Source: Escherichia coli
Lineage (GTDB): Bacteria > Pseudomonadota > Gammaproteobacteria > Enterobacterales > Enterobacteriaceae
Reading direction: 5' to 3' (one strand)
Assembly: GCF_030384885.1 (NCBI RefSeq)
Contig: NZ_CP128613.1
DNA length: 64,000 nt
Shown: piece after piece, positions 2,302-11,485 of the stretch
Position numbering within the stretch: position 1 is the stretch's first letter
Layout: each line of letters begins with the position of its first letter
Notes under the pieces: model-generated
Told to the model about the DNA's origin: nothing
What the model saw: only the letters and a program-made list of their open reading frames with translations
Database searches by the model: none
Program-made: the position numbers and the translations under genes

Positions 2302-2997
2302 ATGTTCAGAAAATTAGCAGCTGAATGTTTTGGTACTTTCTGGCTTGTTTTTGGTGGCTGTGGTAGTGCCGTACTGGCCGCAGGCTTCCCGGAATTAGGT
2401 ATTGGTTTTACCGGCGTGGCGCTGGCATTCGGTTTAACCGTTCTGACGATGGCCTTCGCTGTTGGTCATATTTCTGGTGGTCATTTTAACCCGGCGGTCA
2501 CTATTGGCTTATGGGCTGGCGGACGTTTTCCGGCAAAAGAAGTCGTTGGCTACGTAATTGCCCAGGTTGTCGGCGGTATTGTTGCAGCGGCGCTGCTGTA
2601 TTTAATTGCCAGTGGTAAAACGGGATTTGACGCGGTAGCCAGCGGTTTTGCTTCTAACGGTTATGGCGAGCATTCACCAGGCGGTTATTCCATGCTTTCC
2701 GCGCTGGTAGTTGAACTGGTATTGAGTGCAGGTTTCTTGCTGGTGATCCACGGCGCAACCGACAAATTCGCTCCGGCGGGTTTTGCACCAATTGCCATTG
2801 GTCTGGCATTAACGCTGATTCACTTAATCAGTATTCCGGTGACTAACACTTCCGTTAACCCGGCGCGCAGTACTGCGGTTGCCATCTTCCAGGGCGGCTG
2901 GGCGTTAGAACAACTGTGGTTCTTCTGGGTGGTGCCAATTGTCGGCGGCATTATCGGTGGTCTGATTTACCGGACTCTGCTGGAAAAACGTAATTAA
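2302..2997 (+). CDS. aqpZ: Aquaporin Z (231 aa)
   Basis: Translation [22 protein letters not shown]; ATG at 2302 preceded by GAGGTGGA RBS; the ORF-track GTG start at 2296 is rejected. Confidence 0.95.
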
Positions 2998-3007
2998 TTA
3001 ACGCAGA

Positions 3008-3035
3008 AGGCCTGGCGCAATGTCAGGCCTTTTTT
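3008..3035 (+). terminator. Rho-independent terminator of aqpZ
   Basis: Stem AGGCCTG / CAGGCCT around a 9-nt loop, followed by TTTTT. Confidence 0.7.
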
Positions 3036-3089
3036 AAATATATTGATTCATCTTCCTGTTGCGCTCCTTGATGTGTTAAGCCACATATA

Positions 3090-3330
3090 GTCACTGGCGC
3101 AGGGAGCGCGCAGGGGGCGGCCAATCGCCGCCGCCCCCTGCACCCCCGGGCTCTGGCGAACAAAATCGCCGCTGCGCGGTGCCCTCGACTTATCCCTTGC
3201 GGCTACCGGGTCGGGCGCGAGGTAACATCCCGGTAAAACGCGCCCTCAGCCCACATCCATGTGGGCTGCCCCGGCCTTCAGGGAACACCTCGGCGATTTT
3301 GACGCCACCAACACCGGTGAGGTTTGTAAT
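3090..3330. repeat. GC-rich structured intergenic element with nested palindromes, class not recognised
   Basis: Perfect 12-bp inverted repeat GCAGGGGGCGGC...GCCGCCCCCTGC and a second palindrome CCCACATCCATGTGGG in a block far more GC-rich than flanking intergenic DNA. Confidence 0.4.
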
Positions 3331-3479
3331 TAAAGCGCAAGAATATCTTTAAATGAAAATGAATACCCTACCGATCCTTATGCATAACATTTCCTTTTAA
3401 TTGCAACTTTACTCGTCCTTCTGCTTTCAGTAGTGTGTCATCGCGCATTTCGAATCTTCTTTGCAAGGACTGGGTTTTC

Positions 3480-4379
3480 ATGTTTTCTGGGCTGTTAATC
3501 ATTCTGGTTCCCCTGATTGTGGGTTACCTCATTCCGCTTCGCCAAAAAGCTGCATTAAAGGTTATTAATCAGCTATTAAGCTGGATGGTTTACCTTATTC
3601 TCTTTTTTATGGGTATCAGTCTGGCGTTTCTCGATAACCTCGCCAGTAACCTGTTGGCGATTCTGCATTATTCCGCCGTCAGTATTACCGTTATTTTACT
3701 GTGTAATATTGCCGCCCTGATGTGGCTGGAGCGAGGCCTACCGTGGCGCAACCACCATCAGCAAGAAAAACTCCCGTCGCGTATTGCGATGGCGCTGGAG
3801 TCCCTCAAGCTCTGCGGTGTGGTGGTGATTGGCTTTGCTATTGGCCTTAGCGGATTAGGTTTCTTACAACACGCTACGGAAGCCAGCGAATACACGTTAA
3901 TTCTGCTACTTTTCCTCGTCGGTATTCAGTTGCGCAATAATGGCATGACCTTAAAGCAGATTGTCCTTAATCGCCGGGGAATGATTGTCGCCGTGGTGGT
4001 GGTTGCCAGTTCATTAATTGGTGGTTTAATTAACGCCTTTATTCTTGATCTTCCCATCAATACCGCGCTGGCAATGGCCTCCGGTTTCGGCTGGTATTCT
4101 CTTTCCGGTATTTTATTGACCGAATCTTTTGGTCCGGTAATCGGGAGCGCGGCGTTTTTTAATGATTTGGCCCGTGAGCTGATTGCTATTATGTTGATCC
4201 CTGGGCTGATTCGCCGTAGCCGCTCGACTGCACTGGGCTTATGCGGTGCGACGTCGATGGATTTCACCCTGCCCGTTCTTCAACGTACTGGCGGGCTGGA
4301 TATGGTCCCGGCGGCGATTGTTCACGGTTTTATTCTTAGCCTGTTAGTGCCGATCCTCATCGCCTTTTTCTCTGCATAA
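3480..4379 (+). CDS. lysO: L-lysine exporter LysO/YbjE (299 aa)
   Basis: Translation from internal ATG MFSGLLIILVPLIVGYLIPL; multi-pass membrane protein. Confidence 0.9.
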   Translation: MFSGLLIILVPLIVGYLIPLRQKAALKVINQLLSWMVYLILFFMGISLAFLDNLASNLLAILHYSAVSITVILLCNIAALMWLERGLPWRNHHQQEKLPSRIAMALESLKLCGVVVIGFAIGLSGLGFLQHATEASEYTLILLLFLVGIQLRNNGMTLKQIVLNRRGMIVAVVVVASSLIGGLINAFILDLPINTALAMASGFGWYSLSGILLTESFGPVIGSAAFFNDLARELIAIMLIPGLIRRSRSTALGLCGATSMDFTLPVLQRTGGLDMVPAAIVHGFILSLLVPILIAFFSA

Positions 4380-9042: not shown

Positions 9043-10044
9043 ATGATTGATTTACGCAGTGATACCGTTACCCGACCGAGCCGCGCCATGCTCGAAGCAA
9101 TGATGGCCGCCCCGGTTGGGGACGACGTTTACGGAGACGACCCTACCGTTAATGCTCTGCAGGACTATGCGGCTGAGCTTTCCGGTAAAGAAGCCGCCAT
9201 TTTTCTGCCTACCGGCACCCAGGCTAACCTGGTCGCGCTGCTCAGTCACTGCGAACGCGGCGAAGAGTATATTGTCGGTCAGGCCGCGCATAACTATCTG
9301 TTTGAAGCCGGTGGCGCAGCGGTGCTGGGCAGTATTCAGCCGCAACCCATCGATGCTGACGCCGACGGTACGCTACCGCTGGATAAAGTGGCGATGAAAA
9401 TCAAACCCGACGATATCCATTTCGCCCGCACCAAATTACTCAGTCTGGAAAACACCCACAATGGAAAAGTGCTGCCGCGGGAATACCTGAAAGAAGCATG
9501 GGAATTTACTCGCGAGCGCAATCTGGCACTGCATGTTGACGGTGCGCGTATCTTTAATGCCGTGGTGGCTTACGGCTGCGAACTGAAAGAGATCACGCAA
9601 TATTGTGATTCGTTCACCATTTGTCTGTCGAAAGGTCTTGGTACGCCAGTCGGTTCATTACTGGTCGGCAATCGTGATTACATTAAACGCGCCATCCGCT
9701 GGCGGAAAATGACTGGCGGCGGGATGCGTCAATCCGGCATTCTGGCTGCCGCAGGGATGTATGCGCTGAAAAATAACGTCGCACGCTTGCAGGAAGACCA
9801 CGACAACGCAGCCTGGATGGCGGAGCAGTTGCGTGAAGCAGGCGCGGATGTGATGCGTCAGGACACCAATATGCTGTTTGTTCGCGTCGGACAAGAAAAT
9901 GCTGCCGCGTTAGGCGAATACATGAAAGCGAGAAACGTACTGATTAACGCCTCGCCGATTGTCCGCCTGGTAACCCATCTTGATGTCTCGCGTGAACAAC
10001 TGGCAGAAGTCGCAGCCCACTGGCGCGCTTTCCTGGCGCGTTAA
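9043..10044 (+). CDS. ltaE: Low-specificity L-threonine aldolase (333 aa)
   Basis: Translation [33 protein letters not shown]. Confidence 0.95.
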
Positions 10045-10054
10045 GGAGCGAAAC

Positions 10055-11485
10055 GTGCCGCAACGCATTTTAGTTCTCGGTGCCAGTGGCTACATTGGTC
10101 AGCATCTGGTGCACGCGCTTAGCCAACAAGGGCATCAGACCCTGGCGGCGGCACGTCACGTCGACAGGCTTGAAAAGCTGCAACTGGCAAACGTCAGTTG
10201 TCATAAAGTCGATCTCAGCTGGCCGGATAACCTTCCGGCCCTGTTGCAGAATATCGATACCGTCTATTTTCTGGTGCACAGCATGGGCGAAGGCGGTGAT
10301 TTTATCGCTCAGGAACGCCAGGTAGCTCTTAACGTCCGCGATGCGCTGCGCGAAGCACCGGTTAAACAATTAATCTTTCTCAGTTCATTGCAGGCCCCGC
10401 CTCACGAGCAGTCGGACCATCTGCGCGCCCGTCAGGCTACGGCGGATATTCTTCGTGAAGCGGGTGTCCCGGTGACCGAATTGCGCGCCGGAATTATCGT
10501 TGGTGCAGGTTCAGCAGCGTTCGAAGTCATGCGCGATATGGTCTACAACCTGCCAGTGTTAACACCGCCACGCTGGGTTCGTTCACGCACCACGCCCATC
10601 GCGCTGGAAAACTTGCTGCACTATCTGGTGGCGCTGTTAGATCATCCGGCCAGCAAACACCGCATCTTCGAAGCCGCCGGACCAGAGGTGCTCAGTTATC
10701 AGCAACAGTTTGAACATTTTATGGCGGTGAGCGGTAAGCGCCGCTGGTTAATCCCCATCCCCTTTCCCACCCGCTGGATTTCGGTGTGGTTTCTTAATGT
10801 GATTACCTCCGTACCGCCCACCACCGCCAAAGCGTTGATTCAGGGGCTGAAACATGATCTGCTGGCGGATGACACCGCGCTACGTGCACTCATCCCACAA
10901 CGGCTGATCGCTTTCGATGACGCGGTACGTCGCACGTTGAAAGAAGAAGAAAAGCTGGTCAACTCCAGCGACTGGGGATACGACGCTCAGGCCTTTGCCC
11001 GCTGGCGACCGGAGTACGGTTATTTCGCCAAACAGGCGGGGTTTACCGTTAAAACGTCCGCCAGCCTTGCGGCTTTATGGCAGGTGGTGAATCAAATCGG
11101 CGGTAAAGAGCGTTATTTCTTTGGCAATATTTTGTGGCAAACCCGGGCGTTGATGGACCGCGCGATCGGTCATAAGCTGGCGAAAGGCCGCCCGGAGCGT
11201 GAATATTTGCAGACCGGAGATGCGGTGGATAGCTGGAAAGTGATTGTCGTTGAACCGGAAAAACAACTTACGCTGTTATTTGGCATGAAAGCGCCGGGGC
11301 TGGGACGACTGTGTTTTACCCTGGAAGATAAAGGTGACTATCGTACTATCGATGTTCGCGCATTCTGGCATCCGCACGGTATGCCGGGGCTGTTTTACTG
11401 GTTACTGATGATCCCCGCGCATCTGTTTATTTTTCGCGGAATGGCAAAACGAATCGCCAGACTGGCAGAACAAAGCACAGATTAA
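10055..11485 (+). CDS. ybjT: Putative NAD(P)-binding oxidoreductase YbjT (476 aa), GTG start
   Basis: AAGGAG RBS at 10043-10048 then GTG at 10055; translation (M)[18 protein letters not shown] with Rossmann GxxGxxG. Confidence 0.85.

Follow-up and report, generated by a model that had tools for sequence, protein, structure and literature searches.

The DNA analysed here is a 64-kb stretch of an Escherichia coli genome, referred to below as the window. Near its start the aqpZ gene ends at position 2997 and lysO begins with an ATG at 3480, which leaves a spacer of 482 bp. An earlier note made from the letters of the sequence had singled out this spacer for its length, for a clean aqpZ terminator and for a GC-rich block with two palindromes, and every one of these features is present. 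The terminator has arms at 3007-3014 and 3024-3031 followed by TTTTTT, and it lies outside the repeat that is the subject of this report. The features of the locus are listed by position, with the evidence for each in brackets.

2302..2997, plus strand: aqpZ coding sequence, the upstream neighbour (ORF list; aquaporin Z in the annotation of three collinear E. coli records).
3007..3035, plus strand: intrinsic terminator of aqpZ, a hairpin of AAGGCCTG and CAGGCCTT followed by a run of T (inverted-repeat search, sequence).
3058..3322, minus strand (the G-quadruplex strand, "RRS-G4"): TRIP1a repeat, equal to the extended RRS-lysO (MG1655 identity, collinearity and the position given by Li et al. 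2024).
3061..3109, no strand assigned: terminal helix GCGCTCC / GGAGCGC with arms 3061-3067 and 3103-3109 and a variable AT-rich segment inside (consensus helix 12).
3091..3312, minus strand: core 222-bp RRS-lysO (the definition of Pham et al. 2024, 168-389 bp upstream of the lysO start codon, applied to the ATG at 3480).
3110..3141, no strand assigned: perfect 12-bp GC hairpin of GCAGGGGGCGGC and GCCGCCCCCTGC, arms 3110-3121 and 3130-3141 (inverted-repeat search; consensus helix 11, 4 covarying pairs).
3128..3147, minus strand: published G4-forming motif 5'-GGGGGTGCAGGGGGCGGCGG-3' (exact match, single occurrence in the window, 0 expected by chance).
3161..3301, no strand assigned: long-range helix, a perfect 11-bp inverted repeat of CAAAATCGCCG and CGGCGATTTTG, arms 3161-3171 and 3291-3301 (consensus helix 1, 3 covarying pairs).
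3213..3245, no strand assigned: hairpin H2 (GGGCGCG ... CGCGCCC), the minus-strand loop of which contains GGGAU (folding and alignment).
3247..3268, no strand assigned: hairpin H1 (CAGCCCAC ... GUGGGCUG), containing the perfect 10-bp repeat CAGCCCACAT / ATGTGGGCTG with arms 3247-3256 and 3259-3268.
3299..3330, plus strand: predicted lysO sigma-70 promoter, TTGACG at 3299-3304 and TGTAAT at 3325-3330 (genomic-SELEX hexamers for ybjE, PMC3946193, located in the sequence).
3480..4379, plus strand: lysO (ybjE) coding sequence, the downstream neighbour (ORF list; collinear records annotate the L-lysine exporter LysO).

The G+C content is 67.2% in 3090-3330, against 42% and 37% in the flanks and 50.4% in the whole window. 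The homologous unit is slightly wider than this interval and extends from approximately 3058 to 3322, or from approximately 3047 to 3335 when the weakly conserved ends are counted. The GC-rich block as first drawn, at 3090-3330, is close to the core RRS-lysO, the coordinates of which are accurate to 1-2 bp given indels relative to K-12, but it falls short of the full unit. The block at 3058-3322 is strongly self-complementary at 67% G+C. The perfect 12-bp inverted repeat described earlier was confirmed, and on the minus strand this hairpin overlaps the G4 motif. The second palindrome is also present, and its exact form is the perfect 10-bp repeat of H1. The perfect 11-bp long-range inverted repeat had gone unmentioned in the earlier description; its helix surrounds approximately 125 bp that are absent from the short, TRIP1b-type form of the repeat. 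In the stem of H2, TRIP1d-type copies carry a compensatory change from G-C to A-U.

We are highly confident in identifying the GC-rich block between aqpZ and lysO as TRIP1a, or RRS-lysO, an element that has already been described and is not new; no observation speaks against this identification. TRIP1 repeats were found by Rudd 1999, and the element between aqpZ and ybjE is TRIP1a in Li et al. 2024 (Genes 15:236), who gave K-12 coordinates for TRIP1a, b and c and defined TRIP1d and e. That the "replication risk sequences" (RRS) and TRIP1 are the same is explicit in Pham et al. 2024, TRIP1a being RRS-lysO and TRIP1c being RRS-dusC (Pham et al., NAR 2023, 2024). TRIP1a ends 158 bp upstream of ybjE/lysO (Li et al. 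2024), a distance that corresponds to position 3322 of the window, and the K-12 RRS-lysO of Pham et al. aligns to 3091-3312 of the window, which is nearly the interval 3090-3330. The sequence is 94.6% identical over 314 nt to the lysO-locus spacer of MG1655 (L004:2989-3302, which is NC_000913.3 914988-915301), and TRIP1a, at 915016-915281 in NC_000913.3, lies inside the matched spacer. A K-12-derived genome is 96.4% identical over the 251-nt block, and the whole spacer is collinear with those of MG1655 and CFT073. The window copy shares with the K-12 element its locus, its orientation to the flanking genes, the exact G4 motif and the hairpins, and it is the same element in another strain; the two differ only by strain-level substitutions and by a 10-bp difference between the aqpZ terminator and the repeat. 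Our own analysis establishes the identity with the published element, the position in the spacer, the exact G4 motif with its strand, and a conserved, covarying fold.

The repeat is widespread in E. coli. By blastn it was matched in 5425 of 5426 complete genomes at 18,854 places, the median genome having 3 places and the maximum being 9, so that the copy count proposed in the earlier note finds the block not to be unique. A copy number of 1 to 5 was given for TRIP1 in E. coli by Li et al. 2024. The best match was the aqpZ-lysO spacer in three inspected E. coli records, and the window itself holds a single copy. Other E. coli copies lie at putP-efeU, beside dusC/yohP and at alx-sstT, next to genes unrelated to lysO. 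At the aqpZ-lysO locus no feature is annotated for the repeat in MG1655 and four other inspected RefSeq records, and this missing annotation explains why the block was flagged in the first place.

Outside of Escherichia, one chromosome-sized record of Klebsiella pneumoniae has 13 matching places. The identity between genera is 83-86% in what is non-coding DNA, and near-identity of the element in Kluyvera was reported by Pham et al. 2023. The sites of the repeat are 3' intergenic regions, many of them between convergent genes, which is also where the Klebsiella copies sit. The Klebsiella and Citrobacter copies came from chromosome-like records in a plasmid collection; the matches in that collection were such records, and no association with a transposase or phage was found. 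The 50,697 phage records gave no match to the repeat. In a scan of a genome collection the exact 20-mer GCGGCGATTTTGTTCGCCAG found true homologues in Escherichia only, plus chance matches in unrelated MAGs, this pattern being too strict for genera beyond Escherichia. Two short ORFs within the block (3179-3352 on the plus strand, 57 aa; 3023-3163 on the minus strand, 46 aa) were considered as coding and rejected because indels of 1 and 2 nt, and an internal deletion of 125 bp, separate the copies from one another.

The earlier note left three explanations for the block: a structured RNA in the lysO leader, a protein-binding array and the remnant of a small mobile repeat. The first two amount to a cis-regulatory element of lysO, acting either as a leader RNA or as an operator array. 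The unusually long spacer upstream of lysO would suit such an element, as would the genomic-SELEX sigma-70 site for ybjE, since this predicted promoter overlaps the lysO-proximal edge of the repeat at 3299-3330; the overlap suggests that the repeat may incidentally supply the -35 hexamer. However, this is the sole promoter proposed in the spacer, and transcripts begun at it would lack the repeat. The block matched neither a riboswitch nor a leader family, with no plus-strand Rfam match of weight in 2900-3600, and the sequence common to both alleles of the spacer begins at approximately 3377, downstream of the repeat. Moreover, the repeat is inverted or internally deleted at this locus in approximately 24% of genomes, its paralogous copies adjoin unrelated genes, and deletion of RRS-lysO alone caused no measurable stress or growth defect (Pham et al. 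2024). A lysO-leader RNA is unlikely on these grounds. The protein-binding array finds no support, the published function being that of a single-stranded DNA fold that blocks lagging-strand synthesis. Control of lysO by the block, in either form, seems to us hardly credible. The view that the block is not simple promoter DNA holds good, and the block is a structured repeat present in several copies. A promoter and terminator scan of 2900-3550 reported no sites, the predicted lysO promoter included, and it also misses the aqpZ terminator because of its 9-nt loop.

We prefer, with a probability of approximately 0.9, to read the block as the member of the enterobacterial TRIP1 family that sits at lysO, RRS-lysO, acting as DNA rather than as a gene or a leader. 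The functional side of this reading, namely polymerase blockage, gap formation, conditional essentiality and the effects on supercoiling, is taken from the literature. Prominent single-stranded-DNA peaks, occupied by RecA and SSB, on the lagging strand start at each RRS and are gone after deletion of the RRS (Pham et al. 2023). One RRS strand carries the G4 motif; it is an in vitro block to Pol I, II and IV and reduces synthesis by Pol III, and the RRS is also functional at ectopic sites (Pham et al. 2024). The double RRS deletion was recovered only with amplification of the insH7-insH8 region (Pham et al. 2024), and deletion or inversion of both RRS copies alters supercoiling genome-wide (Pham et al.). 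At the level of single molecules, the G4 strand as lagging-strand template gives a gap at nearly every encounter with the replisome, and the C strand in that position at approximately 66% of encounters (Kusi-Appauh et al. 2026, preprint).

RRS-lysO and its inverted partner RRS-dusC each lie approximately 650 kb from dif, and the RRS authors proposed a "strand-exposure" model together with a topological relief valve near Ter, the latter as a hypothesis. According to this scheme, the lagging-strand template would become transiently single-stranded as a fork passes, and the exposed repeat would fold into a G-quadruplex and several GC-rich hairpins. The lagging-strand polymerase would be stopped at the fold and restart downstream, leaving a gap of approximately 0.3-2 kb that would be coated with SSB and RecA. 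Such transient programmed gaps, in the proposal of the discoverers, could serve as swivels and relieve topological stress near the Ter macrodomain.

In the window copy, the motif at 3128-3147 scores -1.84 in a G4Hunter-type scan, second in strength within the 64 kb, and a regular-expression scan concurs. In each of the eight 8-kb bins the plus strand has a negative GC skew, which points to the G-rich minus strand as the lagging-strand template. The origin and terminus of replication lie outside the window, and it is from the GC skew together with the K-12 gene order that we infer that the G4 strand is the lagging-strand template, in the native orientation as in K-12. The same assignment was reported for K-12 (Pham et al. 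2024).

The fold of the repeat is exceptional for its composition. Folded as single-stranded DNA, the minus strand reaches -78.6 kcal/mol (z = -5.3) and the plus strand -74.9 kcal/mol (z = -5.1), and for either strand 0 of 200 shuffles folded as well, which bears out the earlier expectation of a structured block. Copies from E. coli, E. albertii, E. whittamii, two other Escherichia species, K. pneumoniae and K. aerogenes, 26 distinct ones in all, were aligned; their consensus fold has 12 helices with 73 pairs, and 98.7% of the cells are paired. Fifteen of the 73 pairs change on both sides, compared with 8.7 +/- 1.5 in shuffles, none of which (0/500) reached 15; controls with slid partner columns gave 0-4 pairs. 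The covariation is located in the long-range helix, the junction helices, H1 and the hairpin that overlaps the G4 motif. To judge from this covariation, the fold is under purifying selection. In K. aerogenes the G-run is interrupted (GGGAGTACAGAGGG; GAGGG) and compensating change(s) keep the hairpin, so that selection is demonstrable on the hairpins and not on the G-quadruplex itself.

Selection also appears to act on particular letters. The H1 loop CATGGATG (AUGGAU on the minus strand) is identical in 26 of 26 copies while two of its stem pairs covary, and the segment AGGGATAAG is invariant in all 26 Escherichia and Klebsiella copies. A selected fold fits the view of the repeat as a foldable obstacle to replication, and the fixed loop letters are left unexplained by that model. 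Indeed, a purely physical polymerase obstacle would need no fixed loop letters, and the invariant CATGGATG and AGGGATAAG thus count against a purely physical mechanism. Together with the compensated fold they suggest that a dedicated partner could exist. The repeat may then also be read sequence-specifically, by a protein on the folded single-stranded DNA or by a CsrA-type protein on a TwoAYGGAY-like transcript, possibly along with a cassette-like spread; we consider this extension doubtful.

A related proposal is that the primary product of the repeat is a structured RNA from the minus (G4) strand, related to TwoAYGGAY, and that the replication effects are secondary. TwoAYGGAY (RF01731) has GGA in hairpin loops and was proposed to bind CsrA (Gardner and Eldai 2015). 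It is the best Rfam match of four E. coli copies, and cmscan places it at the same strand and position in each of them, scoring 27.7 bits for the window copy and 30.6-33.1 bits for the other three. The architecture is alike, with an outer helix around two adjacent hairpins. The invariant first loop AUGGAU on its covarying stem agrees with the family, and there are further conserved unpaired segments that contain GGA (AGGGAUAAG; GGAGCGCAA). However, the scores are below the 43-bit gathering threshold, with E-values of 0.05-0.4 in small searches, and six Klebsiella homologues have no TwoAYGGAY match at E <= 1. The second loop deviates from AYGGAY in Escherichia, where it reads CGGGAU, AGGGAU or AGGAC; in Klebsiella it reads ACGGAC, AUGGAC or AGGGAC.

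The scan of 2900-3550 gave no promoter-like or terminator-like site for such an RNA, and the repeat occurs in both orientations relative to its neighbouring genes. In the gene tables of an E. coli CsrA CLIP-seq and multi-omics study, which cover genes, the entries for dusC and ybjE are unbound and not significant. Counts of G.U against A.C pairs favour no strand: the two kinds number 5 and 4 in the shared set, and a first tally of 13 against 5 was skewed by the prediction of the structure on that same strand. The compensatory changes are equally well explained by a fold of single-stranded DNA. We regard a primary role as RNA as very improbable. Membership in TwoAYGGAY was rejected on the sub-threshold score and the Klebsiella homologues, and what is left is a resemblance. 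In the Rfam scan suggested in the earlier note no family reached threshold for the block. Matches to miRNA families were also set aside, as they reflect the long GC hairpin only.

Comparison of the spacer among strains, collinear for MG1655 and CFT073, breaks down for an O157-type allele that lacks the aqpZ terminator and holds the repeat inverted, and which is present in 1283 of 5426 E. coli genomes (approximately 24%). Approximately 460 of these 1283 carry an internally deleted short form. Li et al. 2024 counted 1255 reversed against 3448 forward orientations. In O157:H7, strain 104 and strain E69 the whole aqpZ-lysO repeat is inverted and 90-91% identical to the window copy, with different private sequence on both sides and without the aqpZ terminator. 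The lysO and dusC copies are both flipped in E69. E. whittamii and Escherichia sp. E1V33 have, of this pair, the dusC copy alone flipped, and in E. whittamii the copy at alx-sstT runs opposite to TRIP1d. Both orientations thus occur at three loci (aqpZ-lysO, yohP-dusC and alx-sstT) with the gene flanks intact, and each orientation allele has 40-80 bp of private sequence on either side of the repeat. Recombination between copies is unable to turn one of them round with respect to the flanks on both sides; the flipped alleles therefore look like independent insertions or exchanged cassettes.

These alleles bear on the published model. [quoted passage not shown] The conflict is softened by the finding that the C strand also triggers gaps (2026 preprint). 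The RRS pair is described as two inverted copies approximately 1.3 Mb from each other and symmetric about dif. In K-12 the TRIP1a and dusC copies form such a pair; in strain E69 the two copies are 1.21 Mb apart and inverted. A copy number that varies from 1 to 5 in E. coli and reaches 13 in a K. pneumoniae record does not look like that of a dedicated pair flanking Ter.

The same observations raise the alternative that the repeat is primarily a selfish or mobile, MITE-like intergenic cassette and that its replication effects are by-products of its foldability. Its occurrence in either orientation at three loci with private flanking sequence speaks for this, as do the variable number of copies, with up to 9-10 places in some E. 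coli records, and their 3' intergenic sites, often between convergent genes. The identity of 83-86% between genera in non-coding DNA and the near-identity in Kluyvera (Pham 2023) point the same way. Deletion between imperfect direct repeats has repeatedly given rise to the short form, and in K-12 the alx-sstT slot is occupied by a different palindromic repeat; since it is not an empty site, K-12 is unsuitable as the empty-site reference for insertion boundaries at alx-sstT. However, neither the sequence nor the alignment of copies gave convincing terminal inverted repeats or target-site duplications of the MITE kind. An inverted 7-nt TTGCGCT at both ends is found in the alignment at the K-12-type lysO copy only, and a direct repeat of 8 nt, GTAATTAA, has the aqpZ terminator between its two halves as well and is absent at other copies.

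Further evidence weighs against a cassette that serves chiefly itself. No association with transposases or phages was found in the collections searched, all but one of the 5426 complete E. coli genomes keep at least one copy, and deletion of both RRS copies is tolerated only along with a compensating amplification. The covariation argues for purifying selection on the fold, yet a mobile element could need its fold too. We consider this alternative improbable and retain the reading of the block as RRS-lysO acting as DNA. Of the three guesses in the earlier note, the remnant of a small mobile repeat came nearest: the block does belong to a repeat family (TRIP1/RRS), but no convincing terminal repeats and duplications such as a MITE would have were found.

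What is added here to the published account is a covarying fold, an invariant H1 loop, flips at three loci and a sub-threshold likeness to TwoAYGGAY. Selection can be shown for the folding of the hairpins and for certain letters of the loops, beyond the G-quadruplex. The selection on hairpins and loop, the frequent natural flips and the many Klebsiella copies all bear on whether the repeat is a dedicated device flanking Ter or a foldable repeat that has been partly co-opted.

The closest relatives of the window copy are the paralogues TRIP1c (RRS-dusC), TRIP1b (putP-efeU), TRIP1d (alx-sstT) and TRIP1e (copA-ybaP), which are 82-94% identical and lie at different loci. The full-length paralogues have the same fold as TRIP1a. 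TRIP1b is without the internal 125 bp that hold H1 and H2, and in TRIP1d H1 has been rebuilt through three compensatory pair changes.

Like REP/BIME, ERIC (IRU) and Box C, TRIP1 is intergenic and palindromic, stands outside genes and is a possible substrate for rearrangement. We take it to be unrelated in sequence to the REP, ERIC and Box C consensus and to be much longer than REP. REP elements are present in hundreds of copies; TRIP1, unlike REP, has only 1-5 copies per E. coli genome. Membership in REP/BIME or ERIC was accordingly rejected, as the earlier note had also judged, on the median of 3 places per genome and the absence of an annotated repeat feature in MG1655. The G-quadruplex upstream of pilE in Neisseria gonorrhoeae is presumably short, unrelated in sequence and in the service of pilin antigenic variation, and we assume that it is not a 260-bp multi-hairpin repeat around Ter. 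It is, according to the RRS authors, the only other sequence in bacteria for which G4-driven, programmed gap formation is known. Reports of bacterial sequences that programme single-stranded gaps in the course of replication are limited to two, the repeat between aqpZ and lysO being one of them.

A sigma-70 'constitutive promoter' of ybjE/lysO, with the hexamers TTGACG and TGTAAT, has been listed by genomic SELEX (PMC3946193). The hexamers can be located in the window:

Window 3299-3330: TTGACG / TGTAAT hexamers, at the edge of the repeat that faces lysO

Given this position, a lysO promoter of the window allele may take its -35 element from the repeat. Other strains carry an alternative allele of the aqpZ-lysO spacer in which the repeat is inverted:

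L006:1501-1957: alternative spacer of O157:H7
L007:1501-1956: alternative spacer of strain 104
L019:3840-4205: alternative spacer of strain E69

In this allele, approximately 45 bp separate the aqpZ stop codon from the start of the repeat, and the spacer lacks the terminator hairpin that follows aqpZ at window 3007-3035. The strongest G4Hunter-type score in a scan of the whole window (-2.0) comes from a C-run elsewhere, which is G-rich on the minus strand, the strand shared with the G4 of the repeat (RRS G4):

Window 10748-10775: C-run CCCCATCCCCTTTCCCACCC, C-rich on the plus strand, inside the ORF at 9980-11485

The alx-sstT spacer, which holds the paralogous copy TRIP1d in other strains, is occupied in K-12 by a different palindromic repeat, which resembles the Box C family:

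L041:3047-3444: palindromic repeat CTCCCTCTCCC...GGGGTGAGGG...CCCTCACCC, MG1655 alx-sstT spacer

The alx-sstT spacer is thus a single intergenic slot filled by strain-dependent repeats. In K. pneumoniae, 13 places in CP125156.1 (5.37 Mb, filed as a plasmid) match the repeat. At all five annotated Klebsiella loci that were fetched (within L035-L040), it lies between convergent genes and 85-210 bp past a stop codon.

Copies were also recovered from two further contigs:

L014:5-116 and 432-691: full copy and partial inverted copy of the repeat, 2.8-kb MAG contig JAFAEO010000008.1
L032: TRIP1d-like copy, 583-bp contig (0.7x coverage) with the label Bacillus sp. EB106-08-02-XG196

The copies on JAFAEO010000008.1 are spaced by approximately 300 bp, and the pair could be either an assembly artefact at the repeat or a real head-to-head arrangement. 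The TRIP1d-like copy is flanked by Escherichia-type sequence, and its contig is almost certainly a contamination of the Bacillus assembly.

A short form of the repeat is found on a record labelled as a plasmid:

L005:2822-3142: short inverted form, NZ_CP148327.1 (42-kb 'plasmid')

This record includes the genes hcr-hcp-lysO-aqpZ-ybjD-ybjX and looks like a chromosome fragment with a plasmid label. In the short form the internal ~125 bp are missing, and the GC hairpin is 11 nt shorter. Two imperfect direct repeats, GTTCCCYGAAGGCCGGGGCAG and GTTCGCCAGAGCCCGGGGGTGCAG, bound the deletion, which is of the same kind as that of TRIP1b, the paralogous copy at putP-efeU.
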